From NCBI GenBank assembly GCA_046756825.1, contig JBHHXB010000001.1, positions 1-33,365 of the forward strand: a DNA stretch of 33,365 nucleotides, read 5' to 3'. The translations under genes were made by a program, and so were the position numbers. This DNA comes from Nitrospiria bacterium (GTDB lineage: Bacteria; Nitrospirota; Nitrospiria; SBBL01; JAADHI01). The number at the start of each line of letters is the position of its first letter. Position 1 is the first letter of the stretch. Under the pieces are notes generated by a model. It saw only the letters and a program-made list of their open reading frames with translations, ran no database searches and was not told the DNA's origin. This document shows positions 9,042 through 31,479 of the stretch, piece after piece.

Positions 9042-9062
9042 GACACAGCATTCAGAAATAAA

Positions 9063-9740: not shown

Positions 9741-9782
9741 TCCTACCTCCTTAGTCAATGCATTTTCCCTTAAAGTATTCGT

Positions 9783-10520: not shown

Positions 10521-10657
10521 ACCATTCCTCCTTACATTAAATAACCAGAAAACCTGCTGGGTTCTGTTAAAAATATATTTAATACAAAAATCCATTCAGT
10601 AAACGGCGAATCTCGCACCCCCTGGCATCATTCAACCCATAAGGGCAATGTAGGGGC

Positions 10658-10686
10658 CTTATAAACGAAAACATAACTTCTGTCAA
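10658..10686 (-). promoter_or_regulatory. Sigma70-type promoter for the secreted-paralogue genes
   Basis: Minus strand reads TTGACA (10686-10681), a 17-nt spacer, then TATAAG (10663-10658). The predicted 5' UTR is ~130 nt to ATG 10520. Confidence 0.5.
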
Positions 10687-10829
10687 GCCGGAAGTCCTAA
10701 CAATCGCTTCGATTGATGCTTCCAATCACTCAAGAGACAACGAGGCTCACGCTTAAAACGAGGAGGTTTATCCTTTCCATTTCTGTTTTTGGGGAAAAAT
10801 CACCCGCTTATAGTCTTTTCATGAATCGT

Positions 10830-11768: not shown

Positions 11769-12211
11769 ACCGACGGGCTCCCGATTCTTTTTAAAATAAA
11801 GCGTTCCCGGCGGGTCATTTTTCTTTCCTCCGCCTCCGAGCGTTCGTGATCGTATCCTAAAAGATGCAGGATGCCGTGAATGAGCAGAATCAACAACTGC
11901 CCGGATCGGTCCCGCCCATACCGCAGCGCGTCTGATTCCGCCATCTCAAGCGAGATCATCACATCACCCAAGAAAGCGGGATGCAGATCACCCCCGATGC
12001 CCTCACGCATCGGAAACGACAGCACATCGGTCGGCCGATCGATTTGACGATAGTCCCGGTTGTAGACCCGAATCCGGCGATTGTTCACGAAAACGACCGT
12101 GACTTCGCCATTCTCCATTTTCTGCAGCAATAAAACCTGCCGAACCCAATGATGAACCTGCGCTTGATCGACGGGGTATTTTCGCTGCCGGTTTAATATC
12201 GAAATCCGCAT
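11765..12211 (-). CDS. ybeY: Endoribonuclease YbeY (rRNA maturation)
   Basis: 148 aa with HGILHLLGYDH zinc-binding motif. Confidence 0.95.
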   Translation of the reverse strand: MRISILNRQRKYPVDQAQVHHWVRQVLLLQKMENGEVTVVFVNNRRIRVYNRDYRQIDRPTDVLSFPMREGIGGDLHPAFLGDVMISLEMAESDALRYGRDRSGQLLILLIHGILHLLGYDHERSEAEERKMTRRERFILKRIGSPSV

Positions 12212-12219
12212 GGGAGACG

Positions 12220-13227: not shown

Positions 13228-13251
13228 AGACTTATTTTTGTGTGGGCGATC

Positions 13252-14301: not shown

Positions 14302-15281
14302 TTGACTTTCAAAAGCATCCAGTCTTCTTCCTGGTTTTCATTTTTAAAAAGCCCCTTCATTGTGCCGGCGAACAGGGTCTTTTTTTTCAGGGGATGGGAG
14401 ACCACCGTCAATACGGAGGAGGGCGATTTTGAAAGCAGACGCCACGAATCTCCGCCGTCCGTGCTCTGATAAACACCGTCGCTGTTCCCCGCATAAACGA
14501 TATTTGAATCTTCCCGGTCCACGGCAATGGATGAAATAAAGGTAGTCTTAAAACCTTCGTTTCGCGCTTCCCAGTGGCCGCCCCCATCGACTGATTTAAA
14601 CACGCCTTTTCCCGTGCCTGCGTACACTGTATCGGGATGAACAGGGTCAAACTGGACGGTGTTGACCGCCCAGCCCTTGGTTTCCCGCGAGGCCATCCGC
14701 CATTGCCTCGCGGAGTTACTGGTCATATAAACACCGTCATTGGTCCCCGCCATAATGATCTCCCGGTTACGGGGATGGAAGGTCAGCGAAATGACAAAGC
14801 GGTTGCCCATGCCCATGTTCACATCGGTCCATGAACTCCCGCCGTCGATCGTCAGATAAACACCGTGATTTGTCCCGGCGTACACACGCTTTGACTCGAC
14901 GGGGTCCACGATCACCGCGTTCACCGCCTGCGTCCCCACATTGTCATCCAGCCCATGGCTGACCACATTCCAATGCCCCCCGCTGTCAATACTCCGGTAG
15001 ACGCTGTCGCCGTACGTCCCGGCATAAATCACGGAAGACAGGGAGGGATTCACCGCGATCGAGGCAATATTATAGCTCGTCAAGCCCTTATTCATTTCGC
15101 TGAACGTCGCGCCCCCGTCCTCACTTTTATAAAACCCTCCGCCCGAAGTCCCGACGTAAACGATTTCGGATTTGTGATAGCTAAACCCGATCGAAAAAAC
15201 ATTCGCCCGCCGTTCGCAACCCGTGAAGACGAAAAAAATAAGGACAGGGATGATTTTAAACCGAGGGTAAAATCGCGTCAT
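14298..15281 (-). CDS. BNR/Asp-box beta-propeller lipoprotein
   Basis: Lies in ORF 14298..15335. ATG 15281 gives MTRFYPRFKIIPVLIFFVFTGC (lipobox); ATG 15308 and 15335 are alternative starts. Asp-box units: SEDGGATF, SIDSGGHW, TIDGGSSW, SVDGGGHW, STDGGDSW. Confidence 0.7.
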   Translation of the reverse strand: MTRFYPRFKIIPVLIFFVFTGCERRANVFSIGFSYHKSEIVYVGTSGGGFYKSEDGGATFSEMNKGLTSYNIASIAVNPSLSSVIYAGTYGDSVYRSIDSGGHWNVVSHGLDDNVGTQAVNAVIVDPVESKRVYAGTNHGVYLTIDGGSSWTDVNMGMGNRFVISLTFHPRNREIIMAGTNDGVYMTSNSARQWRMASRETKGWAVNTVQFDPVHPDTVYAGTGKGVFKSVDGGGHWEARNEGFKTTFISSIAVDREDSNIVYAGNSDGVYQSTDGGDSWRLLSKSPSSVLTVVSHPLKKKTLFAGTMKGLFKNENQEEDWMLLKVK

Positions 15282-15427
15282 TTCAGCCCTAAAAAATATC
15301 GTGGGCATCGTACCATATCTTTTTCGCAGAGACAATCAAACCGCAGCCCCTCCCGCTCATTCGAGCCGCCTGATGACCTTTTGCGCCGCGGAATATCACG
15401 GCCTGACAAACCGCCTCGTGATCCTCC

Positions 15428-17383
15428 ATGCCAAGCCCCTTCATTGACATTGATATTAAAGGAAAGTTAGAATATTTGATTGCAAATGAGGCTCTCGTGA
15501 CAACATTAACCCAATCCCAAAAAAAATCAGGCAGCCATCCCCGGCTTGGCGAGTTTCTGTCCCAAAAAGGGCACCTCTCCGAACGGCAAATTAACTGGGC
15601 GCTTGAAGAGCAGAAAAAAACCGGGAAGCGGCTTGGCGAAATCCTGAGCACGCTTAAAATCGTCTCCGAGGACCTGGTCGCGCAGTCCCTGGGGGCCATC
15701 CATGATATTCCCTACGTCACGCCGCACACACTGACCATCGAATCCGATCTCTTTTTGATGATTCCCGAATGGCTTGCCCGCCGTCACCTCGCCGTGCCGA
15801 TCCGGATTCACGAACGGGAGTTTGTCATCGCAATGACCGACCCTTTGAATTACGAAACCTTGAACGACCTTCGGTTTTATGCGGGCATGGCCATCAGCCC
15901 CGTCATCGCCACGCGCAAAAACATACTGGAGACCATCGAACAGAACTATCATTTTGACACTTCTTCTGTCGAAAAAATCGTTCAGGCCTCCGCCAAAGAT
16001 TTTGAAGAAGGCACCCTGCAAGTCATTCCAGACATCGCGGAAGCCAACCTGCTGCATACCGATACCCGTGCACTCGAGGAAAAAAGTCAACTGGGGCCCG
16101 TCGTGCAGCTCACCAATGTCATTGTCGGAAAGGCCATTAAATTGCGGGCCAGCGACATCCATATCGAGCCGGGACAAAAGGATTTTCGCGTGCGCTATCG
16201 CATTGACGGGCTGCTCAAAGAAGAGATGCGGCTCCCCAAATGGGTGCAAAGCCCGCTGGTGTCCCGGATCAAAATTCTCGCCACGCTGGATATCTCGGAG
16301 CGGCGGCTTCCGCAGGACGGCGCCGTTCGTGTCATGGCGGAAGGACGGGCGGTGGATCTTCGTGTGTCCACTCTGCCGACTACCCACGGGGAAAAGGTCG
16401 TGCTGAGAATCCTGGATCAATCGAAGGTCCTGATCGACATCGATCAGGTCGGCCTGCAGGATAAAGACGCCGAAATCGTCCGAAAAATGATCCGAAAACA
16501 GAAAGGGATGATCCTGGTGACAGGCCCCACCGGCAGCGGGAAAACGACGACGCTTTACGCCCTTATTCAGGAGCTCAAGTCGGTCACCAATAATTTAACA
16601 ACCGTCGAAGACCCGGTGGAGTATACGATCGACGGCATCAACCAGATTCAGATCAATAATGAAGTCGGGCTCACATTTTCCAGTTGTCTTCGCTCCATTC
16701 TCCGTCAAGATCCCAATATTATCTTCGTCGGGGAAATCCGAGATAAAGAGACCGCGGAAATCGCCTTTCGGGCCGCGATGACGGGGCACCTGGTTCTTTC
16801 GACGCTTCACACCAATGACGCTCCCTCCACCATTACACGTCTGGTGGATATCGGCATCCCGCCCTACTTGATTTCCTCCAGTCTCGTCGGCGTTATTGCG
16901 CAGCGTCTCGTGCGGAAACGCTGCACACGCTGCAAGGAGCTCATTGGGGAGGAGGATACCGAACCCGACCGCCGCAGAACAGGCTGTTCCCTGTGTAATC
17001 ACACGGGTTTCAGTGGCAGAGTCGGGGTCTTCGAAGTCATGCCCATCACCCCGAAAACCCGTGAACTGATTTCGTCGGGGGCCACCGATGAGGAAATCCG
17101 CGCCGCGAGCACCTCTGTGGGCATGACGACGATGGAGGAGGACGCACTCGTAAAAGCCAGGGCGGGGATGACAACACTGGAAGAGGTGGCGCGCGTGGTC
17201 GAGAAGGAAGAAGTCTTCAAAAGCACCTGTCCGACCTGCCAGCGATCCATCCGCATTGATTTCCTGATCTGCCCCTATTGCGCGGAGGACTCCCCCTATG
17301 TCTGCAATGCCTGCGGGAAACTGCTTCAGCCGGACTGGACGGCCTGTCCCTACTGTCGGCATGAAATTTCACAACATACCTGA
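15428..17383 (+). CDS. GspE/PilB-family secretion ATPase with T2SSE_N-like N-domain and C-terminal tandem zinc ribbons
   Basis: 651 aa. N-terminal GEFLSQKGHLSERQINWALEEQKKTGKRLGEIL matches T2SSE_N/MshEN type. Also Walker A GPTGSGKTT, VGEIRD, the His box LSTLHTNDA and the family tetra-Cys CTRC...CSLC. An extra ~53-aa tail carries two C-x2-C-x10-C-x2-C units. Confidence 0.9.
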   Translation: MPSPFIDIDIKGKLEYLIANEALVTTLTQSQKKSGSHPRLGEFLSQKGHLSERQINWALEEQKKTGKRLGEILSTLKIVSEDLVAQSLGAIHDIPYVTPHTLTIESDLFLMIPEWLARRHLAVPIRIHEREFVIAMTDPLNYETLNDLRFYAGMAISPVIATRKNILETIEQNYHFDTSSVEKIVQASAKDFEEGTLQVIPDIAEANLLHTDTRALEEKSQLGPVVQLTNVIVGKAIKLRASDIHIEPGQKDFRVRYRIDGLLKEEMRLPKWVQSPLVSRIKILATLDISERRLPQDGAVRVMAEGRAVDLRVSTLPTTHGEKVVLRILDQSKVLIDIDQVGLQDKDAEIVRKMIRKQKGMILVTGPTGSGKTTTLYALIQELKSVTNNLTTVEDPVEYTIDGINQIQINNEVGLTFSSCLRSILRQDPNIIFVGEIRDKETAEIAFRAAMTGHLVLSTLHTNDAPSTITRLVDIGIPPYLISSSLVGVIAQRLVRKRCTRCKELIGEEDTEPDRRRTGCSLCNHTGFSGRVGVFEVMPITPKTRELISSGATDEEIRAASTSVGMTTMEEDALVKARAGMTTLEEVARVVEKEEVFKSTCPTCQRSIRIDFLICPYCAEDSPYVCNACGKLLQPDWTACPYCRHEISQHT

Positions 17384-18771: not shown

Positions 18772-20190
18772 TCAATACCGGTAGTGCTCGGCTTTATACG
18801 GCCCGTCCACGGAAACCCCGATGTATTGGGCCTGTTCCGGACTCAGACGCGTCAATTTCGCGCCAACGTGCTCCAAATGCAAACGGGCCACTTCTTCGTC
18901 CAGCGCCTTCGGCAAACGATAGACATCGGTTTTGTAATCATTTTTCCAAAGCTCAATTTGCGCAAGGGTCTGATTTGTAAAGGAATTGCTCATCACAAAA
19001 GACGGGTGCCCCGTCGCGCAACCCAGGTTCACCAGCCGGCCTTCCGCAAGCAGAATAATCGAATGCCCATCCGGGAAGTGATATTCATCAACCTGCTCTT
19101 TAATATTCACTTTTTGAATGCCGGGGATCTGGTTCAATTTGGAGACCTGGATTTCATTATCGAAATGACCGATATTGCAGACAATGGCCTTGTCGTTCAT
19201 GCGCAGCATGTGCTCCGCGGTAATTACATCGAAATTGCCCGTCGTCGTCACGTAGATGTTTCCCTCGGCCAAGGCATCTTCCATCGTCATGACTTCAAAG
19301 CCTTCCATGGCCGCCTGTAACGCGCAAATGGGGTCGATTTCGGTAATAATGACCCGTGCACCATAGGATTTCATGGAGTGCGCGCAGCCCTTGCCGACAT
19401 CACCGTAGCCCGCAACAACGACCACCTTTCCCGCGATCATAATATCCGTCGCCCGTTTAATGCCATCGGCCAAAGACTCCCGGCACCCGTACAGGTTGTC
19501 GAACTTCGACTTGGTCACGGAGTCATTCACGTTAAATGCGGGAAAGAGGAGTTTTCCCTCCTCCATCATGTGATAGAGCCGATGCACACCCGTCGTTGTC
19601 TCTTCCGACACGCCCTTGATTTCTCCGGCAATCCGACGCCATCGTGCTGGATCTTCTTTGCAGGATCCCTTCAAAGACCGAAACAGCTCCACTTCGTCTT
19701 CGGTCGCGTCCTCTTTATCCAGGATAGAAGGGTCTTCCTCCGCATCCCGCCCGACATGAATCATCATCGTCGCGTCCCCGCCGTCATCGACGATCAACTG
19801 AGGGCCCTTCCCTTCGGGAAACAGCAGGGCTTGTTTTGTACACCACCAATATTCTTCGAGGGTTTCACCCTTCCACGCAAAAACGGGAATACCCAGATCC
19901 GCGATCGCGGCGGCGGCATGATCTTGTGTTGAAAAGATATTACAACTGGCCCACCGGACATTCGCGCCCAAGGCCACCAGCGTCTTGATTAAAACCGCAG
20001 TCTGAATGGTCATGTGCAGGGAGCCGGTAATGCGCGCGCCCGCAAGCGGTTTTTCCGAACCGTATTTTTTTTGCAATGACATGAGGCCCGGCATTTCCGC
20101 CTCAGCAAGGGCAATTTCCTTATGTCCCCACCCGGCTAAAGACATGTCCCTGATTTTATAGTCATTTCCCGTAACAGCCGTATTCGCCAT
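18772..20190 (-). CDS. ahcY: S-adenosyl-L-homocysteine hydrolase
   Basis: 472 aa. N-terminus [30 protein letters not shown]-binding GYGDVGKG and HFDNEI motifs. Confidence 0.97.
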
Positions 20191-20263
20191 CTTTACCCTC
20201 TTTTATTGGACTGATTCAATCTGATTTATATCCTTTAATCGCGTTCGCACTCAACCCGGTCTA

Positions 20264-21418
20264 TTAAACAATGCCTGCGGCCACCTTCAGTTTTTCCGAT
20301 AGCTCGGTATTCTCCCACGTAAAATCGGGGTCATTTCTTCCAAAATGTCCGTAGGCCGCTGTTTTTTTATAGATCGCTCTTTTGAGTTTCAAATGCTCAA
20401 TGATCCCTCTCGGAGACATCGGGAAAAACTCTCTCACGAGTTTTACAAGTTTTTCCTGTGAGATCTTGCCCGTCCCCTGTGTATCGATCAGGACGGAAAC
20501 CGGATCAACCACCCCGATCGCATAGGCCAGTTGAACCTCGCAGCGATCCGCTAATTCTGCCGCGACGATATTTTTGGCAATATAACGCGCCATGTAAGAT
20601 GCGGAGCGGTCCACCTTGGAAGGGTCTTTTCCTGAAAACGCGCCCCCGCCATGACTGCCCACACCGCCATAGGTATCGACGATGATTTTCCGGCCCGTAA
20701 GCCCCGCGTCTCCCTGAGGCCCGCCGATGACAAATCGACCCGTTGGATTAATGTGATAGATAATGCTTTCCTCGTCAATCATCTCATTCGGAATCACCGG
20801 TTTAATCACTTTTTCAATAATATCTTCCCGAAGCTCCTTCAATGTGATATCCGGGCTGTGCTGTGTCGAAATGACAATGGTCGAAACCCGAACCGGCTTT
20901 CCATCACGATATTCAATCGTGACCTGTGATTTTCCGTCGGGTCTCAAGTAGGGAAGCACATCCTCTTTTCTGACTTGAGCAAGCTGTTTTGTTAATTTAT
21001 GAGCAAAGGTAATCGGCATGGGCATTAATTCCGGGGTTTCATTCGTCGCATAGCCAAACATCAGCCCTTGATCCCCCGCGCCACCGGGATCGACGCCCAT
21101 CGCAATATCCGGGGATTGATTGTGTATTGAGGTCATTACACCGCAGGTTTCATAATCATAGCCGTACTTGGCCCGCGTATAACCAATGCCTTTTATCGTT
21201 TCCCGTACAATATCGGGTATTTCAACATAAACAGAAGTGGTGATTTCTCCTGCGACGAACGCGATCCCCGTGGTCACAAAAGATTCACAGGCCACCCGGC
21301 ACTCGGGGTCGCCCTGAATAATGGCATCCAGCACCGCATCTGAAATCTGATCTGCGATTTTATCGGGATGCCCTTCGGTCACAGATTCCGAAGTAAATAA
21401 AAAATTATCACGGGCCAT
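20264..21418 (-). CDS. metK: S-adenosylmethionine synthetase
   Basis: Lies in ORF 20264..21424. ATG 21418 is preceded by [38 protein letters not shown] and GGGAFSGKD motifs. Confidence 0.97.
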
Positions 21419-21473
21419 GCTCACCTCCTAATGTGCGGTGGGTTGAACACTTGCATATCATCTTTGGCTCAAC

Positions 21474-21523: not shown

Positions 21524-21571
21524 AAAATAAAAGGGTGGCTGCCCGAATTACAGACAGCCACCCTTTTATTT
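21524..21571. terminator. Bidirectional rho-independent terminator ending the cytochrome operon
   Basis: GGGTGGCTG (21533-21541) pairs with CAGCCACCC (21555-21563) around a 13-nt loop. It is flanked by AAAATAAAA upstream and TTTTATTT downstream, so a U-tract follows the stem on either strand. It lies 19 nt after the stop at 21590. Confidence 0.7.
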
Positions 21572-21589
21572 AGAATTTCGGTTGTTTAC

Positions 21590-23368
21590 TTATCCTTCTT
21601 CTCCTTCACCTTCGTGGTCTTTTTTATACTGAATCGCTGCGGCACGGGCCCAGCTCAACAAACCAATCAGGACAAAAAAGACAACCGGGGGAACAACGTA
21701 AACCGTGGTCGGAATCGGCGGCTCCATCATCAGGTAATAAAATGTGGAAAGCGCCATACGGCCACCAACTTCACCGGCATCGCCATCCCAGGCGAAAAAG
21801 GTCATCGGGATGTTTTTGCCATTCACAAGCTGTGCCGACTTTTCTTTATCCTCGGTCAACAAGGCTCTTTTCATGATGACGCGCCAGCGGCCGTTTTCCC
21901 ATTTGGAATAAACCACTTTGACGTTTTTGTCATCCCGCACCTGAAGGGCATCGATGCCATGGCCTTCAATTTCCTCCACGGTGCCGTCGGACTGCCATTT
22001 CCAGATATCCACGCCGTGTTTTTCGTCGCCATGAATAAAGTAGGGCTTCAAGGGCGGCGCAAGGGTTTCCCAAACCTGCGGAAACTGAACCGCGATCCCG
22101 TCATTGTAGACACCGACGGGCTCCGGGTTCACGTCTTTTAAAGGTCCACGGGCACGGTCATTTTCGTGAGTGTATTGCGTGGTGTTGATCGCCGGAAAGG
22201 CCAACGACGACAGGCGTTTGAAATCATACTTGGCTTCGGCGCTTTCATCACGATGGCTTTCCGTCCGGTCATCCCACTCAAAAAGAATAACCACGTCCTT
22301 GTCGTTATAAAGGGAGCGGACCCGAATATCGTCCACCGTCCGGATAAAGTGACGCGGCGGCTGAATAATCTGGCTCGCCATCCCCACAAACTGAGGTTCC
22401 AGCACATCCCATTTTTCATCCGTCGGCGATTCCGGCAGTCCACCCTCTTCCACGAACTTGGACTTAATGACAAAGCCAATGGCCGGCCGACCTGTTTCAG
22501 GGTCCAACGGCCGTTTGACATCCGTCAGCGACATGACAAAGTTGGCGACGTGCCATCTTTCTTCCTCGCTCAACTCGTCAGCGAAAGACGGCATTGGCGT
22601 TCCATTCAACCCCGTAGAAATCTCTCTAAAAATATTTCTGGGATTATAGGGATCACGCCGGTTCCCTCTTAAATTCCACGGCTTTTGAAGATTCGCCGGA
22701 AAGATCGGGAAGGCCCAGTCATCCCGCTGCGTCAGGTTCCCGTTTCCGCGGCCTTCGACACCGTGACATTCCACACATTTTGCCTTGTTCATAAAAATGT
22801 CACGGCCCTGCTCAATGCTTTCCGGGGACGATGGAATCTGGGTACCGTAACTGATGACGGTAATTTCCTCATCGGGATCATCAAATTCCCGATCCTTCAC
22901 CAGTTCCTTCTTGACAAAGGCCACCACGTCTATCCGTTCCTGCTTGGAGAGAATGGCACCCCACGCCGGCATCACCGAACCGGGAAGCCCGTGGGTCACC
23001 GAGTTAAAAAGATCCTCATCCGTTGGCAACTCTCCGCTTCCCGTATGCCGAATCTTGAAAGTTCCGGCATTAAAGTTTCTGGGCTTGGTCGCCAGGCGAA
23101 TCGCGGAAGGGCCGTCACCCGCGCCATCCGGCCCGTGACACCACACACATTTACGAAAATAGACCCCCTTGCCGGCCTCGATATTACCGCCCAAGGTTCC
23201 CGGTTTGTAGGTACCGGGGGTGGGCTCCAGGGGCGCGGGGGCGACTTTGAAGATCTGCGCCTCTCCGGGGAGAGCAGATGCCAGCACCAAAGCGGCCGCC
23301 GCTCCCAGCCCGATGATTGCCCCTTTCAGGCCCTCAACAGCCTTTCTTTCTCTCTTTTCTTCAATCAT
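21590..23368 (-). CDS. Dihaem c-type cytochrome fused to an EB_dh/NxrC-like (DOMON-type) haem-b domain, with C-terminal TM anchor
   Basis: Lies in ORF 21590..23389, whose listed start is TTG; ATG 23368 follows GGGAG. N-terminal signal/anchor GAIIGLGAAAALVLASALPGEA. Two class-I haem sites, CVWCHGPDGAGDG..GSVMPAW and CVECHGVEGRGNG..GTPMPSF, are CcoP-like. The following ~300 aa carry VDIWKWQSDG, GRWRVIMKRAL and FFAWDGDAGEVGGRMALS, resembling the haem-b gamma-subunit domain of ethylbenzene dehydrogenase/Ser/Clr/Nxr enzymes. Terminal TM VVPPVVFFVLIGLLSWA. The domain call is at motif level only. Confidence 0.75.
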   Translation of the reverse strand: MIEEKRERKAVEGLKGAIIGLGAAAALVLASALPGEAQIFKVAPAPLEPTPGTYKPGTLGGNIEAGKGVYFRKCVWCHGPDGAGDGPSAIRLATKPRNFNAGTFKIRHTGSGELPTDEDLFNSVTHGLPGSVMPAWGAILSKQERIDVVAFVKKELVKDREFDDPDEEITVISYGTQIPSSPESIEQGRDIFMNKAKCVECHGVEGRGNGNLTQRDDWAFPIFPANLQKPWNLRGNRRDPYNPRNIFREISTGLNGTPMPSFADELSEEERWHVANFVMSLTDVKRPLDPETGRPAIGFVIKSKFVEEGGLPESPTDEKWDVLEPQFVGMASQIIQPPRHFIRTVDDIRVRSLYNDKDVVILFEWDDRTESHRDESAEAKYDFKRLSSLAFPAINTTQYTHENDRARGPLKDVNPEPVGVYNDGIAVQFPQVWETLAPPLKPYFIHGDEKHGVDIWKWQSDGTVEEIEGHGIDALQVRDDKNVKVVYSKWENGRWRVIMKRALLTEDKEKSAQLVNGKNIPMTFFAWDGDAGEVGGRMALSTFYYLMMEPPIPTTVYVVPPVVFFVLIGLLSWARAAAIQYKKDHEGEGEEG

Positions 23369-23433
23369 TATATTTATTCTCCCTTTCAAATCACATTCCA
23401 GTCAAATGGACTCGTAAAACGTTCCAAAAGAGA

Positions 23434-24435
23434 TCATCCCCATGTTCTTGGAAAGAATCCTGTATGCCAGTATTCAAAGATGATCACTTTCCAGATTTCG
23501 TTTGTCGTCAGATGCTTTTCCCAGGGCGGCATGGCCGAGGCCCAGGGGAAGGCTTCACGCGACAAATCCGGTCCACCTTTTGACACACGCCAGAACACAA
23601 AGGTCTCCTGTAACTGAGAGATGGTCCCAGGGTCGGCAAAGTTTGCTGGAATGGGGTTAAAGGCAAATGAAAAGGGGCCTTTTCCGTCGAGGTTGTCCCC
23701 ATGGCAGAAGAAGCAACCGGCGGTTCCAAAGAACACAACGCCCCCTTGCTGGACTTGTTGAAGAAACTTGGGCACATCACCTGTCCAGGCATTTCCACCA
23801 AAATATTGGGCTTCATCACCCACCTTCAGGTAGTTCCCGTCATCCCCAATCCGAAATGGATTTTCCGCAGTTTGAAGGTTCAATGTTTTTTTATGAACAT
23901 TGATACTTGCCGGCGGCGCCGGATGCACCGTCCTCAACTCGATCGGCTCTCCGAATTTCGGGAGCATCTGGTTGTAGGTTTGAAAGGCGATCAACCCCGG
24001 CACAATCAGGAAGGTCGCGTAACGCGAAATTTTCGCCGTTCCATGATCTTCCCGCAACATCACCGCAATGGGATGGGAAAATTCCTCCCACGAGGGTCTT
24101 GTAATGGAGCAATAAAGAAAGATCGCCACCGTACAGACTCCCATGTACATCGCCAGCAAGGTGAAAGGAATCGGCGGCCGCAAGATAACACGAAAACCGA
24201 CATAACAAATAATCCACAGCAGGGGCGCCTGGATGAGTTTCGGCAAGGGAATCCCCATTTTGTCCTTAATCAGCCATGCGGACAGAATTGCGAAGGTCAC
24301 AAGACCCACCTCGATCGCGACAAAGGTTCCGGCGTCGAAAGGACCGCCACCACCACCGGCCCAGGCAAACATCGGGACAGCCAGGATCAGTGCCAAGACC
24401 TGCGCAAACAAAGTCTTTGGTTTAAACTTACTCAT
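23434..24435 (-). CDS. Polytopic membrane protein with C-terminal monohaem cytochrome c domain
   Basis: 333 aa, AGGAGG upstream. The N-terminal ~170 aa hold about 4-5 hydrophobic helices. The C-terminal part has CFFCHGDNLDGKG ... SAMPPWEKHLTTNEIWKVIIFEYW, a class-I cytochrome c. Confidence 0.8.
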   Translation of the reverse strand: MSKFKPKTLFAQVLALILAVPMFAWAGGGGGPFDAGTFVAIEVGLVTFAILSAWLIKDKMGIPLPKLIQAPLLWIICYVGFRVILRPPIPFTLLAMYMGVCTVAIFLYCSITRPSWEEFSHPIAVMLREDHGTAKISRYATFLIVPGLIAFQTYNQMLPKFGEPIELRTVHPAPPASINVHKKTLNLQTAENPFRIGDDGNYLKVGDEAQYFGGNAWTGDVPKFLQQVQQGGVVFFGTAGCFFCHGDNLDGKGPFSFAFNPIPANFADPGTISQLQETFVFWRVSKGGPDLSREAFPWASAMPPWEKHLTTNEIWKVIIFEYWHTGFFPRTWG

Positions 24436-24466
24436 AATTACTTTGCCTCCTTTTTCATACGACTGC

Positions 24467-25747
24467 TTAGTTTAAGCCGATAAAGGTTGAATTTTCGATC
24501 CCTCTGTTCGTCGAAACCCGTGCAGACAGACCTCCCTCATCAAACATCGGCTTATTCCCGGCAAACGCCTCACCGGTTTTCGCTTTTGCCTCCGGTTTTT
24601 TAATGGGGCCTTCTTTTTCATTCGGAAGACGATCCATCCCATCGGCGAGAGCTGCGGCCTCATCCTGCGCAATCAAGTGATCCACAAGCACGTCCAGGCC
24701 GGATACCGTGAATTTGTGCTTAAAGTCCTTTATCATGTCATCCGCAAAACCCGGCACAATAAAGGCGCCCGGATCCATGATCGACTCAATGATGTATTCA
24801 CGCGGCGTCGTCGCATGGGCCTTTCCGGCCTTCACCGCCGCCTGATATTCGGGCGACTTGATACGGTTCGGCGCGTTCGTCCCTTCAATTAACAGAGGCC
24901 CTATAGCGCCGGTTTTGGCGACGGAAATACCGGGGATCTTATGACAGGCGTAACAGGTCATTTTCGTCACAATCTCCTCCGGCGATTCAGAACCCAGCGC
25001 CACAGGAGGTCCTGCCGGTTTTTCTTCTTCCACCGGCGCTTCCTCTCCCGCGCCAAGATCCTTACCCCAATAAGCCTCCCAGTCTTCCTTGGCGGTCCAC
25101 TTCGAGGGGTCGTCCCGCATTTGGAGAAAAGAGACAACCGCGACAATCTCCGTATCCACCAGTAGAATGGGCGGTTTGTTAATGATCGGCATCGGGCTGA
25201 CCGTATCGTTCGTTCCCTTCAGGCCAAAGCCTTCCACCACGAAGCAGTTCGGGCAGTACTCCGATTCGATCAAGTACTGTCCGCCCGTTTCGGCGTGAGG
25301 CACAATCCCCGAATCTTTTTCCCCATTTGCATGACGTTTCTTTGACTCCTCGTAGCGAACCTCCTTGATGCGCTCGTGAGAGCGCTGTTCCTCGCTGACC
25401 TGAAGCAATTTCTGAGGCTCCGTTTTCAAGGCAATCAGGTTCGGGCAACGATCCGCCTTCTGCTCCATAAAAAACCGATGACAAAGCGGACACTGCCCCT
25501 TACCGATCGGCCCTTCACCCTTTGCCAGCACGCCCAGCGGATCATGAGAACCGAAAATAATTTTCTCCCCCATTTCCTGCAGCATTTCGGGCGTGACCGC
25601 CGAAACGTCGATGGCTTCAGCCGCCTCCGGGGCGTCCCCTCGAATCTGCGGCAGCCAGTTGGTGTATGCCGCAAAAATCCCTAGAATCGTGCAGTACCAG
25701 AGGGCCACCTTAAGTACAATGCGTCCTGCTCCTTTTTTCTTAGCCAT
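24467..25747 (-). CDS. Membrane-anchored dihaem c-type cytochrome
   Basis: Lies in ORF 24467..25915. ATG 25747 is preceded by GAGGAGAAGG and gives MAKKKGAGRIVLKVALWYCTILGIFAAY (signal anchor). Haem sites CPLCH and CYACHKIPG, plus a CPNC pair. Confidence 0.8.
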   Translation of the reverse strand: MAKKKGAGRIVLKVALWYCTILGIFAAYTNWLPQIRGDAPEAAEAIDVSAVTPEMLQEMGEKIIFGSHDPLGVLAKGEGPIGKGQCPLCHRFFMEQKADRCPNLIALKTEPQKLLQVSEEQRSHERIKEVRYEESKKRHANGEKDSGIVPHAETGGQYLIESEYCPNCFVVEGFGLKGTNDTVSPMPIINKPPILLVDTEIVAVVSFLQMRDDPSKWTAKEDWEAYWGKDLGAGEEAPVEEEKPAGPPVALGSESPEEIVTKMTCYACHKIPGISVAKTGAIGPLLIEGTNAPNRIKSPEYQAAVKAGKAHATTPREYIIESIMDPGAFIVPGFADDMIKDFKHKFTVSGLDVLVDHLIAQDEAAALADGMDRLPNEKEGPIKKPEAKAKTGEAFAGNKPMFDEGGLSARVSTNRGIENSTFIGLN

Positions 25748-25777
25748 ACCTTCTCCTCTGTTCCTTTCTTTGCTACG

Positions 25778-25815
25778 TTGGCCCAAGGGGAGCGGGATTG
25801 CCCCCCCCTGGCCAA
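25778..25815 (-). promoter_or_regulatory. GC-rich stem-loop in the CydA-like / cytochrome c intergenic spacer
   Basis: TTGGCC (25778-83) pairs with GGCCAA (25810-15). Inner G-runs (25787-96) pair with the C8 run (25801-08). No U-tract follows. Confidence 0.3.
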
Positions 25816-25829
25816 TCAAACTCCCGTCA

Positions 25830-27764
25830 TCAGTGACTTCCCGCCGGCACAGCCTTGCCAGCGGCTGCGGCCGCTTCCGCTTCCACCTTCTTCTTGCCCG
25901 CGCCCGCAAGGGCACTCAGCCAGAAAACGAAGAGGAGCATCGTCCAGAACAGAAGCACATTGAGCGAGTTAATATTGCCCGCATAGCCGAGCGGATTTGT
26001 AAACGCCCACGGCGAATTGTCTCTCAGGATCTCATTGACATGCCAGTGAAGACGGACAGAGGAGCGCAGATAGCCCATCACCGCCATTGTCCAGGTAAAG
26101 GCCACGGCCAGCATAAACAGGGCGTAAGCCCCTCTCACAGACATCCTGCCCCAGCGAATTTCGCCGACCTGTTCCGCGCCTTTCAACATCTTCACATTCA
26201 CGGTCACACCGACAAAAAGAACTGTCAAGGTTGAAGCCACCTGGGGCACCGAAAGACCGATCCGGACATTGGCCGGAATAAAGTAGCCATAGACCCCCAG
26301 GAACAGAATATTGGCTTCCGCACCCAGAACCAGGAAGAATAAAAAGATATTCCCCTTCCAGGCCCAAGGCACCTTAAGATTAAGATTGCACCGCTGATAA
26401 ATAATAAAACAAACAACGGTTGTCGTAATCATTGTATTGATCGCTGTGTTTTTCGCCGACATCACCCCGTAGTTTCCGACAACGGGATGCTGCGCACCGC
26501 CCATCGCCTTCAACTCCGCCGGTGTCATCACCAGGGTATGCGGTGTCAACCAGGAGATGGTGGATACAACCAAGACCGCCAGCATGAATTTGAAATACGG
26601 ATAATATCTTTCAGAACCCGGCATACGGCCCATGGCCTGAAAAAGATAGTAGTTCACCGTGATAAACAGGGTCGCAATCATTGTGGCCTGCATAATAAAC
26701 ACCCAGGCCAGCAAACCGCCCATCAGGGTGATCCCCATCTGCTGCCGATATGCGTAAATTTCCCGCATCAGCCAATAACCCGCGAAGGGAAGCGGAATCA
26801 AGGCAAGAATCCCCATAAACATGGCGATGTAACTCATCCAGTCATAGTGCCCTTTTTCCTCAGGGGTCTTGGCTGCAAGAAACTTAAATGCAGAGTAGGC
26901 CGCAACAACACCGCCGCCAAAAGCCGCATTCCCCAAAATACGATGAATCACGATGGGCACCATCAGCGGGTTGTGCATGACCTTCCATATATCCCCCAGA
27001 AAGCGGCCCTGCGCATCCACCCCGGCCGGCGACATCATAAAGCTGACCCAGGTATTCGCCATCACCATCAGCACGATACCAACGGCATTCAACACAGTAC
27101 CCAATGCAAGATGGCTCCATTTCCAGTCGCCGTCGCCATCGTTCATGGCATCCCAGCCATAGTAATAGACGTACAACACGCCGCTCTCCAAAATAAAGAG
27201 CAAGGCGTAAATATGCATCACAGGCCTAAAGATCCCCGATAAATACCGGAAAAAGCCCGGATAAAGGGCAAGAAACGAAAATATTAAGATCCCGCCCAAA
27301 ATGGCCGTCACAGAGTAGGCCGTCAAACTGATCTTCATCATTTCATGGGCCAGATCGTCAAACTTTTTCCCCGCCTTCTGATCTTTCCCAAACTGAATAA
27401 TTCCGATCAGCTCCATAACCCAGACAAACATGGGAACCGCCAAAACAAAGCTTCCAAAATACAAATGCTGCTGATTTGCAATCCAGATAATTGTTCGACT
27501 TTGAAAGTCGCCATAAGAACCATAATCATCCGGATAAACAAGCTCACCCGCGGGAGGGCCGGAAACGATTCCGAACTCGCCCTCTTCCTTGTAAAAAACG
27601 TCTTTCGCTTTTTCTGGTTCTGCTTCTCCTTCCTCCGCCACAGCCGCCTCTTCCTGCGCCATCACAACGGCAGGGGCGAACGGAAGAAGGACGAGCATCC
27701 CAATCATGCTCAGCAGGAGCCACGCTCCGACCTTCTTTTTGCTGTCTCTAAATAGATTTAACAT
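25830..27764 (-). CDS. Cytochrome bd-like oxidase subunit I homologue (CydA-like, paralogue 1)
   Basis: 644 aa, AAGGAGGA upstream. Polytopic. WIANQQHLYFGSFVLAVPMFVWVMELIG matches the first CydA helix with its haem-ligand His. NTWVSFMMSPAGVD matches the CydA W-M-Q-x-P-x-G block, followed by IHRIL. It has an extra N-terminal TM plus an acidic linker. No canonical Q-loop or GRQPW block was seen. Confidence 0.85.
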   Translation of the reverse strand: MLNLFRDSKKKVGAWLLLSMIGMLVLLPFAPAVVMAQEEAAVAEEGEAEPEKAKDVFYKEEGEFGIVSGPPAGELVYPDDYGSYGDFQSRTIIWIANQQHLYFGSFVLAVPMFVWVMELIGIIQFGKDQKAGKKFDDLAHEMMKISLTAYSVTAILGGILIFSFLALYPGFFRYLSGIFRPVMHIYALLFILESGVLYVYYYGWDAMNDGDGDWKWSHLALGTVLNAVGIVLMVMANTWVSFMMSPAGVDAQGRFLGDIWKVMHNPLMVPIVIHRILGNAAFGGGVVAAYSAFKFLAAKTPEEKGHYDWMSYIAMFMGILALIPLPFAGYWLMREIYAYRQQMGITLMGGLLAWVFIMQATMIATLFITVNYYLFQAMGRMPGSERYYPYFKFMLAVLVVSTISWLTPHTLVMTPAELKAMGGAQHPVVGNYGVMSAKNTAINTMITTTVVCFIIYQRCNLNLKVPWAWKGNIFLFFLVLGAEANILFLGVYGYFIPANVRIGLSVPQVASTLTVLFVGVTVNVKMLKGAEQVGEIRWGRMSVRGAYALFMLAVAFTWTMAVMGYLRSSVRLHWHVNEILRDNSPWAFTNPLGYAGNINSLNVLLFWTMLLFVFWLSALAGAGKKKVEAEAAAAAGKAVPAGSH

Positions 27765-27790
27765 TAAGCTTTCCTCCTTAAGGAAGTTTT

Positions 27791-27816
27791 AAAGAAAAGA
27801 CTGCCAAAAAGCAGTC
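27791..27816 (-). promoter_or_regulatory. Short hairpin plus U-tract between mini-ORF and CydA-like gene (possible attenuator or processing site)
   Basis: Minus strand reads GACTGC-tttttg-GCAGTC followed by TTTTCTTT. The stem is only 6 bp. Confidence 0.3.
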
Positions 27817-27832
27817 AAGGTTTTTGCCAACC

Positions 27833-27991
27833 CTAATTGAGGCCATAGAAGTAGTCGAGGTTTTGCGCCGGCCCCATCAAAACCCAATTCAAAAAAAGGT
27901 AATAGTAGAGTGATGTTCCAGCGAACATAATCACACCCCACACAATTTTCTGGCCGATACCGACCTTTTCCTGTGCTTGCTCATCTGACAT
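27833..27991 (-). CDS. Single-TM mini-protein (52 aa), candidate small subunit
   Basis: Below the track's 60-aa cutoff. ATG 27991 is preceded by AAAGGGGCAGATAA. Product MSDEQAQEKVGIGQKIVWGVIMFAGTSLYYYLFLNWVLMGPAQNLDYFYGLN has one clear TM helix. Same strand, 69 nt upstream of the CydA-like gene. Confidence 0.45.
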   Translation of the reverse strand: MSDEQAQEKVGIGQKIVWGVIMFAGTSLYYYLFLNWVLMGPAQNLDYFYGLN

Positions 27992-28064
27992 TTATCTGCC
28001 CCTTTATTTTTAATCAGCTCAGGTTACAAGTAAGCTTACAACTCAACTACATCAACGCTTGAAT

Positions 28065-28181
28065 CTAATGAATAAATCCAGGCGGCGCATGCATCGAATA
28101 CCAGCTAGCCCAGCATAAAAATGCTACGGACAGCCAGAATAATTTTTTACCAATATTTGCTTTTGGCCTATCTTCCGCCAT
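28065..28181 (-). CDS. Mini-protein (38 aa) with short hydrophobic segment, candidate small subunit
   Basis: ATG 28181 is preceded by TAAGGGGGGTTCTCGTC. Product MAEDRPKANIGKKLFWLSVAFLCWASWYSMHAPPGFIH. It is the first ORF after the predicted transcription start. Confidence 0.4.
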   Translation of the reverse strand: MAEDRPKANIGKKLFWLSVAFLCWASWYSMHAPPGFIH

Positions 28182-28237
28182 GACGAGAACCCCCCTTAAT
28201 ACTGTTGGCTACACTTTTCCGGTGTTGAAATGACGGG

Positions 28238-28266
28238 ACTATAGCCCAAATGATTTGCCTTGTCAA
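28238..28266 (-). promoter_or_regulatory. Sigma70-type promoter of the bd-like/cytochrome c operon
   Basis: Minus strand reads GGC-TTGACA (28266-28261), a 17-nt spacer, then TATAGT (28243-28238). Confidence 0.55.
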
Positions 28267-28380
28267 GCCCAAACACACCCGGCAAAACCCTGGTCAAGGC
28301 TTGACTTCATTTAGTCCGTTATGGTTATAGTAATTAATATTTTTTAACTTGAGGAATCAGGGAAAAGGGAGAAGTTACAG

Positions 28381-28524
28381 ATGAAGCTACCAAAGAAACA
28401 GGAAGACGCGCCTTATTATTCTCATAAGAATTCGCCTCTTTTTGATCTCTTCATTATTATCGGTCTTATTTTTAACGGCTTGTTCGTTATCTTCTTCCTT
28501 TTGTACTGGCTGGAACTGGTCTAA
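28381..28524 (+). CDS. Single-TM mini-protein (47 aa), divergent from the operon
   Basis: ATG 28381 is preceded by AAGGGAGAAG. Product MKLPKKQEDAPYYSHKNSPLFDLFIIIGLIFNGLFVIFFLLYWLELV. A possible promoter lies upstream: TTGACT 28301-06, 19-nt spacer, TATAGT 28326-31. Confidence 0.35.
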   Translation: MKLPKKQEDAPYYSHKNSPLFDLFIIIGLIFNGLFVIFFLLYWLELV

Positions 28525-28586: not shown

Positions 28587-29420
28587 CTATTGCTCTTCTG
28601 TTTTTGCGCACCTGAATCCAACCGCTTCATAGCGGTACCCCGGGATCATTTTCAATCTTCCCGTTGTTCTGCCCGAGTAGAGCGAATCCCGCCACGACGA
28701 CCCCCTCAACACCTTCATTTCTCCTTGTTCAGGCCCTTGGGGGTTTTTTGAAGGGCCCTGCGCATAATATTGATCGTCGTACCAGTCCTGCACCCACTCA
28801 CGGACATTTCCCGCCATGTCATAAAGACCGTAGGGGCTTTTATCCTGCTCATAGGACCCCACAGTCATCGTAAATACGCCCCGATCATCTTTTCCCTTAA
28901 AATTAGCAAAGGTCGGCTCAAATTTTTCCGTCCAGGGCCAAGACAATCCCTCGGTGCCTCGTGCGGCTTTTTCCCATTCCGCCTCGGTCGGCAAACGCAG
29001 GCCCGCCCACTCGCAATACGCGTAAGCATCCAGCCAGCTCACGTAAATCGCGGGTTGGTTGGGGTGATTAAAAAAGTGAATATCCTTCACGTAACGATTC
29101 AGGGGTTTTCGATGACCGGTCGTCGCGACAAACTGATCATATTGATGCTGGGTGACTTCATACTGGTGGATCGCAAAAGCATCAAGATACACCGCACGCT
29201 TGGGTTGCTCATCCGTACCCCCGTCTTCGGCCCCCATGATAAATTCCCCGGCCGGGATCACAATCATCGGATTGTCTCGCGGCGGCTCGGAAAAGTTAAT
29301 GGGGTTTTCGGCGACCACAGCCGTCCTGTCCTTTGGTTGAGAGGAAATAATCATGAAAATCCCCACCCCCACCAAAAATAAAATGAAAAGAACATAAACC
29401 CTGATAAATGTCTTATCCAT
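28587..29420 (-). CDS. Membrane-anchored formylglycine-generating-enzyme (FGE/SUMF1) family domain protein
   Basis: 277 aa. N-terminal TM VYVLFILFLVGVGIFMIIS. FGE-sulfatase motifs RLPTEAEWEKAARG, YGLYDMAGNVREW, RGSSW and GFRCA. Confidence 0.85.
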   Translation of the reverse strand: MDKTFIRVYVLFILFLVGVGIFMIISSQPKDRTAVVAENPINFSEPPRDNPMIVIPAGEFIMGAEDGGTDEQPKRAVYLDAFAIHQYEVTQHQYDQFVATTGHRKPLNRYVKDIHFFNHPNQPAIYVSWLDAYAYCEWAGLRLPTEAEWEKAARGTEGLSWPWTEKFEPTFANFKGKDDRGVFTMTVGSYEQDKSPYGLYDMAGNVREWVQDWYDDQYYAQGPSKNPQGPEQGEMKVLRGSSWRDSLYSGRTTGRLKMIPGYRYEAVGFRCAKTEEQ

Positions 29421-29592: not shown

Positions 29593-31479
29593 ATGAATCA
29601 CATACAAAGCCGCGCATGCTTTTACATGACCTTTTTACTCACAGCCCTCATCCTTTTCACAACCGCCGCCCCGGGTAAAGACGCACTCGCTTCGTCCCCG
29701 TCATCCGGCATTTCAGAAGACATCTATTTTAAAACACCGGGCACCATTTCAGGCCCGCACGCGCCGGAATTGAATTACCCGGAAAGCTACGACGGAAGCG
29801 GAAAGCTCGACAACCGCTCGATCCTGTGGGTGCTCATCCAGCAGCATTTTTTCCTGGGGAGTTTCATCCTTGGGGTGCCCATGATGGCCTGGATGCTGGA
29901 AATTTTCAGTTATTTTCGACGAAAGTCCAATCCGGCCAGCGCGGAAAAACATGACAGTCTGGCCCACGAATTCATGCGGATCGGGCTTCCGTTTTATCCG
30001 CTCACGATTGTCTTCGGGTTTGCATTGCTCGGTGCATTCATTTTTCTCTACAGTGAATTTTCGAGATACATGTCAACGATCTTTCGCCCGGTTCTTTATT
30101 TTTATGTGGTCGTCTTCTTTTTAGAGAATGTATTGCTCTACGCCTACACCAAAACCTGGGATCGCTGGAAAACAGGGATCGCCAAGTGGAAACATCTGGG
30201 GCTCGGGGCGGCGACCTGCTTCAACGGCCTCGTCATCATCTATCTTGCGAACGCCTTGATGGCCTTTATGATGTCACCGGCCGGCGTTGATTCGGAAGGC
30301 CATTATCTCGGCAACATCTGGAACGCCGTCAACACGCCGCTCTGGAACCCCCTCAACATTCACCGGATTCTGGCCAGCATCATGTTCAGCGGCGCGGTTA
30401 TCGCGGCCTACGCCGCCTATCAAATGCTGACGACCCGCGACCCGGCAAAGCGCGCGCACTACGACTGGATGGGGCACGTCTCCATCATGATCGCCATCGT
30501 CAATCTTTTTATCCTCCCCTTCGCGGGCTACTGGTTCGCGAAAGAGATCTTTATTTACCGGCAGCGGATGGGCGTGACCCTCATGGGCGGTAAACTGAGC
30601 TGGCCCTTTATCATGCAGGCCATGTTGATCGGGCTCATTTTCATGACCGTCACCTATTATCTTTGGCAGGGCACCGCGCGCATGCGCGGCTCGGAGCGCT
30701 ACCGGCATCTGGTTAAATACACCATGTTTATCCTGGCCACCGCCTTTTTGATTTGGGCCACACCGCACACGATTCCCGCGAGTCAGGGCGAATTCAAGGC
30801 GATGGGCGGCTCACAGCATCCGATTGTCGGCTACTACGGCACCATGGCCGCAAAGAACACCGCCATTAACACCATGATTTTGAGCTTCGGGCTGTGCTAC
30901 ATCATCTTTCACCGATGCAACAAAGAAATCACCGTCTCGTGGTCCCGCTGGGGGAATACCGTCATGGCGCTCATGTTCATCGGCGCGGAGGCCTTCGTTA
31001 TCTTCGTCGGCGTCTACGGTTTTTTCATCCCGGCCAATGTCCGCGTCAAGCTGGCCTTTCCGCAGTTCATGGTAGCCATCAGCGCCCTGACGGGCGGCAT
31101 GCTGCTGAACATCGCCATGCTGAGGAAATCAAAAATCATCGGCCCTGTGCAATGGGGGAAACTCCCGACTTCCGGGGCCTTCGCCCTTTTTTCACTGGCC
31201 GTGTTCATCTCGACCACAATGGTTTTAATGGGCTACATTCGTTCCTCGGTGCGTCTGGACTGGCACGTCACGGAAATCCTGAAGGATACGACGCCTTGGG
31301 CGGGCACCCCTTCCCTGAGCTACGCCATGGGCATGGTGGTGTTTAATGTCGTGGTTTTCTGGGCGATCAGCACAGTCATCTTCCGAATCGGAAATCGCAA
31401 GACCACGAGAACCTTTTCGATGAGATCAAATCCCGTCACGTCGAGCGGCACTTCGCCCGAAGAATCACCCCTGCCGTAA
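29593..31479 (+). CDS. Cytochrome bd-like oxidase subunit I homologue (CydA-like, paralogue 2)
   Basis: 628 aa. It can be aligned by eye with 25830..27764 over essentially its whole length. Identical blocks include FMMSPAGVD, IHRIL, HYDWM, LPFAGYW, GSERY, TPHT, KAMGG.QHP, AKNTAINTMI, FIPANVR and RSSVRL.WHV. Confidence 0.85.
   Translation: MNHIQSRACFYMTFLLTALILFTTAAPGKDALASSPSSGISEDIYFKTPGTISGPHAPELNYPESYDGSGKLDNRSILWVLIQQHFFLGSFILGVPMMAWMLEIFSYFRRKSNPASAEKHDSLAHEFMRIGLPFYPLTIVFGFALLGAFIFLYSEFSRYMSTIFRPVLYFYVVVFFLENVLLYAYTKTWDRWKTGIAKWKHLGLGAATCFNGLVIIYLANALMAFMMSPAGVDSEGHYLGNIWNAVNTPLWNPLNIHRILASIMFSGAVIAAYAAYQMLTTRDPAKRAHYDWMGHVSIMIAIVNLFILPFAGYWFAKEIFIYRQRMGVTLMGGKLSWPFIMQAMLIGLIFMTVTYYLWQGTARMRGSERYRHLVKYTMFILATAFLIWATPHTIPASQGEFKAMGGSQHPIVGYYGTMAAKNTAINTMILSFGLCYIIFHRCNKEITVSWSRWGNTVMALMFIGAEAFVIFVGVYGFFIPANVRVKLAFPQFMVAISALTGGMLLNIAMLRKSKIIGPVQWGKLPTSGAFALFSLAVFISTTMVLMGYIRSSVRLDWHVTEILKDTTPWAGTPSLSYAMGMVVFNVVVFWAISTVIFRIGNRKTTRTFSMRSNPVTSSGTSPEESPLP

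Follow-up and report, generated by a model that had tools for sequence, protein, structure and literature searches.

An OR-N2-type cytochrome bd-like gene cluster with five c-haem motifs on a contig of an uncultured Nitrospiria bacterium

Contig JBHHXB010000001.1 of the Nitrospiria bacterium assembly GCA_046756825.1 was analysed over its complete length of 33,365 nucleotides (positions 1 to 33,365 of the forward strand; hereafter the window). From position 28266 to 21525, its minus strand carries a tightly packed operon that runs from a promoter through two small open reading frames (mini-ORFs), a gene for a CydA-like protein and three genes for c-type cytochromes to a terminator. This operon is almost certainly the gene cluster of an OR-N2-type cytochrome bd-like complex of the Nitrospirota, which is called TO_1 in Ca. 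Manganitrophaceae. Its features are as follows, with SD denoting a Shine–Dalgarno sequence and TM a transmembrane segment.

28238–28266, minus strand: promoter of the sigma-70 type, TTGACA-17-TATAGT
28065–28181, minus strand: mini-ORF 1, SD-preceded, 38 residues, hydrophobic core, motif GK..F.....F..W..WY...PPG
27833–27991, minus strand: mini-ORF 2, SD-preceded, 52 residues, single-TM peptide, motif YY..L(N/D)W.LM..QNL.(F/Y)PY
27799–27816, minus strand: internal 7-bp hairpin with T-run between mini-ORF 2 and the CydA-like gene
25830–27764, minus strand: CydA-like subunit of the OR-N2 type, 644 residues, N-terminal signal/anchor helix and 14 TM helices
24467–25747, minus strand: membrane-anchored dihaem cytochrome c, 426 residues (CPLCH, CYACH), homologue of Kustd1711
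23434–24435, minus strand: polytopic monohaem cytochrome c, 333 residues (CFFCH)
21590–23389, minus strand: fusion of a dihaem cytochrome c (CVWCH, CVECH), an EB_dh/NxrC-like domain and a C-terminal TM helix
21525–21571, minus strand: intrinsic terminator, hairpin with T-run

Boundaries and transcription signals of the operon

The original prediction, which was made from the DNA letters and a list of open reading frames, had placed this unit between a near-consensus promoter and a strong hairpin terminator, and both elements withstood closer analysis. The promoter matches the consensus at 11 of 12 positions and is the top site of the scan. Its −35 (CTTGACA) and −10 (CTATAGT) elements are kept in nine of ten aligned related loci (the exception is locus L008), while the flanking sequences have diverged. 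The number of promoter-like sites in the region (11) is not above that expected by chance (8.3 ± 3.5), and the call is thus based on match quality and conservation, not on site count. The terminator at 21571–21525 was missed by a pattern scan and revealed by RNAfold, with a folding energy of −34.2 kcal/mol and a z score of −9.97 against shuffled sequences. Equivalent hairpins with T-runs follow the last gene in eight other loci, where the stem sequences differ yet the pairing is kept. The internal hairpin at 27799–27816 was returned as a terminator-like site by the scan, and several related loci carry non-homologous hairpins at the same intergenic spot before the CydA-like gene. It is possibly a partial terminator or an RNA-stabilising element, and might adjust how much of the small subunits is made relative to the large ones. 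Rfam at gathering thresholds and ARAGORN found neither a riboswitch nor an RNA gene anywhere in the window.

Two further motifs lie upstream of the promoter. A conserved AAGTCAAG motif (about 28300–28330, minus strand) stands some 35 nt upstream of the −35 element and is common to most close loci, as is an ACCATAA motif farther upstream; both may be candidate regulator-binding sites. Downstream of the cluster, metK and ahcY (18772–21424, minus strand) follow in nearly all Troglogloeales loci, though not in Ca. N. bockiana. They were considered as members of the operon and rejected, as the strong terminator and a separate TATAAT/SD of their own intervene. Rfam indicated no S-adenosylmethionine riboswitch near these two genes.

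The CydA-like subunit and its three cytochromes

The assignment of the 644-residue protein to the CydA superfamily, as originally predicted, is upheld by its sequence and by its predicted fold. Pfam Cyt_bd_oxida_I (PF01654) matches it with an E value of 4.6e-21 (75 bits; cut-off 26), the match spanning only profile positions 3–240 of 418, i.e. the N-terminal part. An hhalign alignment to E. coli CydA equates H100 with H19, which ligates the O2-reducing haem, Y186 with E99, E193 with E107, H218 with the channel residue H126 and H274 with H186, which ligates haem b558, and ends at E. coli residue 212, short of the quinol-binding loop (Q-loop); the channel positions Y186 and E193 are spaced by one residue less than their E. 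coli counterparts. In an AlphaFold2 model with a predicted local distance difference test score (pLDDT) of 75, DSSP assigns 14 long helices after the N-terminal signal/anchor helix, and TM helices occupy the expected position of the Q-loop. The top ten Foldseek matches of this model in the PDB are all CydA chains, with E values down to 3.8e-7, so that the fold is that of CydA over the whole chain. A sequence search of the PDB gave a single weak CydA match (E 0.0026), which means that no OR-N structure is present in that database. NCBIfam holds no model for this protein, for the second CydA-like protein described below or for the mini-ORFs.

The bd superfamily has been split into the qOR, OR-C and OR-N groups (Murali, Gennis and Hemp 2021). 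OR-N2 operons contain several cytochromes c and an ebdC homologue, and Table S6 of that study describes OR-N2 proteins as having 14 TM helices and the residues H99, Y183, E190, H213, H269, M430/N434, S563 and W569, numbered on the reference TKS59798.1 (Murali et al. 2021). All of these signature residues are present in the 644-residue protein at small offsets (H100, Y186, E193, H218, H274, M435/N439, S568 and W574). In terms of E. coli CydA, they include Met/Asn for M393, Ser for E445 and a retained W441. The three histidines H100, H218 and H274 are identical in 121 of 121 aligned sequences, and at least 97% of these share each of Y186, E193, M435/N439, S568 and W574. Four extra histidines, H306, H409, H426 and H575, are invariant or nearly so. 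The correspondence of E. coli E445 to S568 was derived from the published OR-N2 residue offsets and has no alignment of our own behind it. The family has many members: among the candidates scored, over 7,800 clusters (90% identity) reach E ≤ 1e-10, and 160 representative clusters (50% identity) reach E ≤ 1e-30. Five distant representatives (P0362, P0364, P0371, P0373 and P0382) are 780–890 residues long, which suggests that they may be fusions with extra domains.

Five CxxCH motifs are distributed over the three cytochromes exactly as claimed in the original prediction. The dihaem cytochrome that follows the CydA-like gene lies in an open reading frame of 482 codons, in which the SD-preceded ATG at 25747 is the most likely start and yields the 426-residue product; this product matches Kuenenia Kustd1711 in the PDB (7ZS0/7ZS1; E 2.1e-6), the haems of which have potentials of about +350 mV (PMC11791136). 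The monohaem protein combines hydrophobic segments at its N-terminus, as judged by hydropathy, with a C-terminal cytochrome c domain (Pfam Cytochrom_C, E 1.9e-4), and its gene keeps the same place in the gene order in all loci. The last cytochrome had been given as 593 residues, close to the 592 residues that result from the better-placed, SD-preceded ATG at 23368; the alternative start, a TTG at 23389, gives the 599-residue version to which the Pfam results below refer. Cytochrome_CBB3/Cytochrom_C match this protein twice, and the distal methionines M140 and M266 of its dihaem domain are conserved. In the closest loci, a paralogue of the 426-residue cytochrome (41–45% identical) is found about 9 kb upstream of the cluster, a position that falls beyond the end of the window (L001 250–1260, L002 246–1172, L004 3–620, L005 218–1249 and L027 288–1409).

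The C-terminal domain of the last cytochrome had been compared with the haem-b gamma subunits of ethylbenzene dehydrogenase and Nxr-type enzymes. The comparison holds at the level of the domain: EB_dh (PF09459) matches with an E value of 1.5e-16 (61.6 bits; cut-off 33.3), and the PDB matches include 6H5L_B (E 1e-49), CcoP and, for the EB_dh domain, weaker matches to Kuenenia NxrC (7B04_C) and EbdC (2IVF_C); against TIGR03477 the protein scores 95.5 bits, below the cut-off of 169.85. It does not hold at the level of the ligands. With the EbdC haem-b ligands at the residue numbers that we take to be theirs, the Lys position falls on M545 (89 of 119 sequences have Met there), and the Met of the NxrC 'RMGD' motif aligns with H453 (His in 65 and Phe in 47 of 119); the Met/Lys axial ligands of EbdC are therefore not kept. 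Since these positions are not conserved, haem-b binding by this domain is putative. The fused architecture itself is widespread, with 1,905 proteins matching at E ≤ 1e-5. Every one of the 120 listed relatives scores E ≤ 1e-173; all three Pfam families are found in 118, and the two without the full set are short sequences (432 and 335 residues).

The original prediction had also noted that a CydB homologue, a haem-copper oxidase subunit and molybdopterin or iron–sulfur partners are missing. Our Pfam scan covered the open reading frames of at least 120 residues on the contig, minus those almost wholly contained in a longer frame on the opposite strand, and none of these encodes a CydB (Cyt_bd_oxida_II), a haem-copper oxidase, a molybdopterin protein or an iron–sulfur protein; within the same scope there is no frame resembling the A or B subunit of nitrite oxidoreductase (NXR).

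Synteny, small peptides and neighbouring genes

The order of mini-ORF(s), CydA-like gene, dihaem cytochrome, polytopic monohaem cytochrome and dihaem-EB_dh cytochrome is intact in the 21 loci with enough sequence, and on shorter contigs it is intact as far as the sequence reaches. The closest loci, in which the CydA-like protein is 92–71% identical, belong to Nitrospirota, Ca. Manganitrophaceae and Ca. Troglogloeales metagenome-assembled genomes (MAGs). The same order is found, at 75% identity, in the complete Ca. Manganitrophus genome (L013) and, at 59% identity for the CydA-like protein, in the nitrite oxidiser Ca. Nitrospira bockiana (L033), which also has two small upstream open reading frames. 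The co-conservation of the cytochrome genes with the CydA-like gene thus applies to every related locus long enough to be judged, and extends to Ca. N. bockiana. Two more distant arrangements were encountered. An uncultured Nitrospirota contig (L030) contains three tandem CydA-like/cytochrome modules at 4582–16691, and a Hydrothermarchaeota archaeon MAG (L029) contains, at 2734–5567, a CydA-like gene (44% identical) followed by a homologue of the monohaem cytochrome.

The two upstream mini-ORFs of 38 and 52 codons, noted originally as preceded by SD sequences, encode conserved peptides. The possibility that they are chance open reading frames was rejected, as their peptide sequences are conserved while the DNA diverges. 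The 38-residue peptide recurs in 19 further loci, Ca. N. bockiana among them, with identities falling to about 26%. A profile search with the 52-residue peptide retrieved 301 clusters, among them the contig's own annotated hypothetical protein ACE5F7_00110; the members are unnamed or 'hypothetical', save for a few generic names that resemble mislabels. The motifs of both peptides are recognisable from Troglogloeales to Nitrospira, and Pfam gave nothing credible for either. By analogy, these peptides are probably small structural subunits like CydX/CydS.

Three further features flank the operon on its upstream side.

28381–28524, plus strand: third mini-ORF, 47 residues, hydrophobic, facing away from the operon promoter and towards the next gene
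28587–29420, minus strand: protein of the FGE-sulfatase family (SUMF1/PvdO/EgtB-like; FGE, formylglycine-generating enzyme) with an N-terminal membrane anchor
29593–31479, plus strand: second CydA-like protein, 628 residues

The 47-residue peptide has tblastn matches at the syntenic position in 17 loci (E ≤ 1e-6; 87–44% identity), and in Ca. N. bockiana a weak match (E 0.001) coincides with a called gene of 34 codons at the same place; it is a possible extra component. The conservation of the two upstream mini-ORFs and of the divergent one is added by this analysis to the published OR-N2 description. The FGE-like protein (Pfam E 2.3e-59), which may be a maturation factor, is encoded upstream of the cluster in 15 loci, with two tandem copies in Ca. 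N. bockiana.

The second CydA-like gene starts 1.3 kb beyond the operon promoter and has neither cytochrome genes nor mini-ORFs of its own. Its product (Pfam E 1.4e-16) is 43–46% identical to the 644-residue protein and keeps the equivalents of E. coli H19, E107, H126 and H186 (H100, E193, H218 and H274 of the 644-residue protein), as well as those of H306, H409, H426 and H575. Such a paralogue adjoins the cluster in eight loci and lies 3.7 kb upstream of it in Ca. N. bockiana, and the freshwater Manganitrophus loci have none within 10 kb. Both the paralogue and the FGE-like gene are conserved neighbours of the cluster in the marine clade, and Ca. N. bockiana has them in another arrangement. 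The 628-residue protein is a candidate for either a CydA' partner or an independent enzyme. OR-N CydA paralogues have been proposed in the literature to pair as CydAA' complexes. The description 'CydA-only' had overlooked this adjacent paralogue, and because the second CydA-like gene is a conserved neighbour, 'CydB-less' should be read alongside the CydAA' proposals.

The remaining part of the contig (430–6403 and 13252–15335, both on the minus strand) is unrelated to the cluster according to Pfam. Among its products are FtsY, YbeY, PhoH, a DUF1302 protein, a 980-residue CarboxypepD_reg protein and a 1056-residue TPR protein, the open reading frames of the last two sharing 140 bp, as well as two tandem BNR/Ycf48-like proteins, a type II secretion/type IV pilus ATPase with a zinc ribbon, a PTPS protein, an AccD-like protein and Sir2.

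Possible function and comparison with known systems

We consider it somewhat more probable than the alternatives combined (a probability of roughly 0.55) that the cluster encodes an O2 reductase fed by cytochrome c. The sequences retain the CydA haem core and proton-channel residues and have lost the quinol site, and the five c-haem motifs sit on three membrane-anchored proteins that face the periplasm. The six products could accordingly be envisaged as one complex that takes up high-potential electrons from the periplasm. In this lineage such electrons would probably be derived from Mn(II) oxidation via outer-membrane or periplasmic cytochromes, and in nitrite oxidisers from NXR. The periplasmic EB_dh/dihaem-c subunit would be their point of entry, together with the two membrane-anchored c-type cytochromes; from there they would pass along a relay of five His/Met-type c-haems and possibly one b-haem, and reach the haem at H274 of the CydA-like subunit and then the active-site haem at H100 in the conserved four-helix core, where O2 would be reduced to water. 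Protons would be taken up from the cytoplasmic side by way of the conserved E193/H218 channel, and this uptake would therefore generate a proton-motive force by charge separation, as in canonical bd. Quinol would not be the donor, since the extra TM helices replace the Q-loop. Both the potential of the Kustd1711 haems and the conserved distal methionines fit a high-potential path. Supporting context comes from the Ca. Manganitrophaceae, which are reported to be without nitrification genes, with a marine genus that is also without a cbb3 oxidase; TO_1 is the top-expressed TO complex in strain Mn1.

Several observations weigh against an O2 reductase. No OR-N enzyme has been purified or assayed to date (2025). 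E99 and E445 of canonical CydA are replaced by Tyr and Ser, respectively, and the canonical three-haem site is hence not fully retained. The EB_dh haem-b ligands are not conserved (H453 in 65 of 119 and M545 in 89 of 119). The same four-gene module is found within the nxr cluster of anammox bacteria, and as these are strictly anaerobic, O2 reduction cannot be its main role there. Lastly, the association of the six products into one particle is deduced from their co-transcription and synteny.

The anammox occurrence leaves room for an older idea, in which the products are not an oxidase but would dock a periplasmic enzyme of the type-II dimethyl sulfoxide (DMSO) reductase family, such as NXR, to the membrane and relay electrons between it and the membrane or quinone pool, e.g. 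in reverse electron transport, in the manner of an alternative complex III. We regard this as a serious but unlikely explanation. In known enzymes, the NxrC/EbdC-type domain found in the last subunit docks an α–β catalytic module; the module lies inside the nxr cluster of anaerobic Kuenenia; and a role as an NXR anchor or reverse-electron-flow complex has been proposed before for Nitrospina and Nitrospira. Yet the family of the closest relatives is reported to lack nitrification genes, no molybdenum or iron–sulfur partner is encoded among the scanned frames of the 33-kb contig, the quinol-binding Q-loop is missing, and the H19-type haem ligand and the proton-channel residues, which a simple conduit would not need, are conserved in all or nearly all members. 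The anaerobic, NO-metabolising lifestyle of the anammox hosts could also be taken to mean that the CydA-like site reduces or detoxifies an oxidant other than respiratory O2, such as nitric oxide (NO), nitrite, peroxide or peroxynitrite. Canonical bd oxidases are established to handle NO and peroxide as well, and the active site is altered here (E99 to Tyr, E445 to Ser), but the cluster is very highly expressed while Mn(II) or nitrite is oxidised aerobically, which is more in keeping with a main respiratory role than with detoxification, and we judge this reading to be improbable.

How the products are assembled is a related matter. The genes might be co-transcribed without their products forming a single complex, the cytochromes serving as general carriers of electrons in the periplasm or membrane and the CydA-like protein working only with its paralogue. 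The case for a complex is one of synteny, the cytochrome-less CydA-like paralogue is a conserved neighbour, and the published proposal of CydAA' pairs concerns just such OR-N paralogues. The four-gene order nevertheless persists across Troglogloeales, Nitrospira and Kuenenia, and order kept over such a phylogenetic distance is usually taken to imply physical interaction, so we give little credence to independent products. A larger unit can be imagined, in which the 644- and 628-residue proteins would form a CydAA'-type heterodimer with the micro-proteins of 38, 52 and 47 residues, the FGE-family protein would act in maturation, H306, H409, H426 and H575 would bind an extra metal or haem, and the whole would serve as the main O2 reductase of marine Manganitrophaceae without haem-copper oxidases. 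FGE is a copper enzyme, and FGE-like NirV proteins accompany copper nitrite reductase. As a complete scheme this larger unit is speculative and, in our estimate, doubtful.

The identity of the O2-reducing enzyme of Nitrospira, many Nitrospinota and Mn-oxidising Nitrospirota has been a question since 2010, with OR-N bd-like complexes as the main candidates. The contig contributes a further well-preserved example with clear transcription signals, which on its own does not make the question more testable. It also provides a fuller parts list for purification or modelling, with two or three micro-proteins, a CydA' paralogue, an FGE-like neighbour, four extra invariant histidines and non-canonical EB_dh ligands. 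The original prediction was correct in recalling that genes of this kind had been pointed out in the genomes of Nitrospira, Nitrospina and anammox bacteria, and its statement that no such complex had been isolated agrees with our search of the PDB and of papers to 2025, which turned up no homologous complex that had been solved or purified; papers of 2024 and 2025 describe the enzyme as still uncharacterised and its oxygen affinity as 'still unknown'. The cluster is, on the other hand, far better documented than that prediction implied, having been named, classified and described with exactly this composition.

Among known systems, canonical CydAB(X) bd oxidases (qOR1–3; E. coli, PDB 6RKO) share with the cluster the CydA fold and the four-helix haem core (H19, E107, H126 and H186), and their CydX is analogous to the small single-TM peptides of the operon. 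They differ in having a Q-loop with a quinol site, CydB and 9 TM helices, whereas the 644-residue protein has 14 TM helices and the cluster lacks both the quinol site and CydB; moreover, E99 and the b595 ligand E445 correspond to Tyr and Ser, and a different electron donor is implied by the cytochrome c partners. The EbdC/NxrC gamma subunits of type-II DMSO reductases have in common with the last cytochrome an EB_dh domain above the Pfam threshold. In our protein, by contrast, the domain is joined to a TM anchor and to a cytochrome c part with two haems, the Met/Lys ligands are replaced and no α/β partner is encoded nearby.

The resemblance becomes much closer with clusters of nitrite-oxidising and anammox bacteria. 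In N. moscoviensis, bd-like_3 is encoded with two membrane cytochromes c and alt_NxrC_2, with another bd-like gene only a few genes off; the cluster ranks within the top 40 genes by transcription, and counterparts are conserved in Nitrospina and in anammox bacteria (Mundinger et al.). In Kuenenia stuttgartiensis the corresponding genes are kustd1712 (cydA-like), kustd1711 (dihaem), kustd1710 (monohaem) and kustd1709 (dihaem). Both organisms have the same four genes in the same order as the window. They also have NXR, with the Kuenenia module situated within the nxr cluster, whereas our contig has no NXR genes. TO_1 of Ca. Manganitrophaceae consists of a bd-like oxidase, two cytochromes c and a periplasmic cytochrome b of the complex iron–sulfur molybdoenzyme (CISM) type (Yu et al. 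2022), a composition that is matched by the cluster described here, which is syntenic with those of Manganitrophaceae/Troglogloeales MAGs at 71–92% identity. The contig represents a different and more marine or vent-like clade than Ca. Manganitrophus noduliformans, and in this clade the CydA-like paralogue is adjacent. With the OR-N2 group, finally, the cluster agrees in its 14 TM helices, its signature residues, its cytochromes c and ebdC homologue and its host phylum Nitrospirota, and there is no substantive difference between the two. The cluster has thus already been named as OR-N2, TO_1 or bd-like_3/alt_NxrC_2, and this contig adds one more example from an uncultured member of the Nitrospirota.

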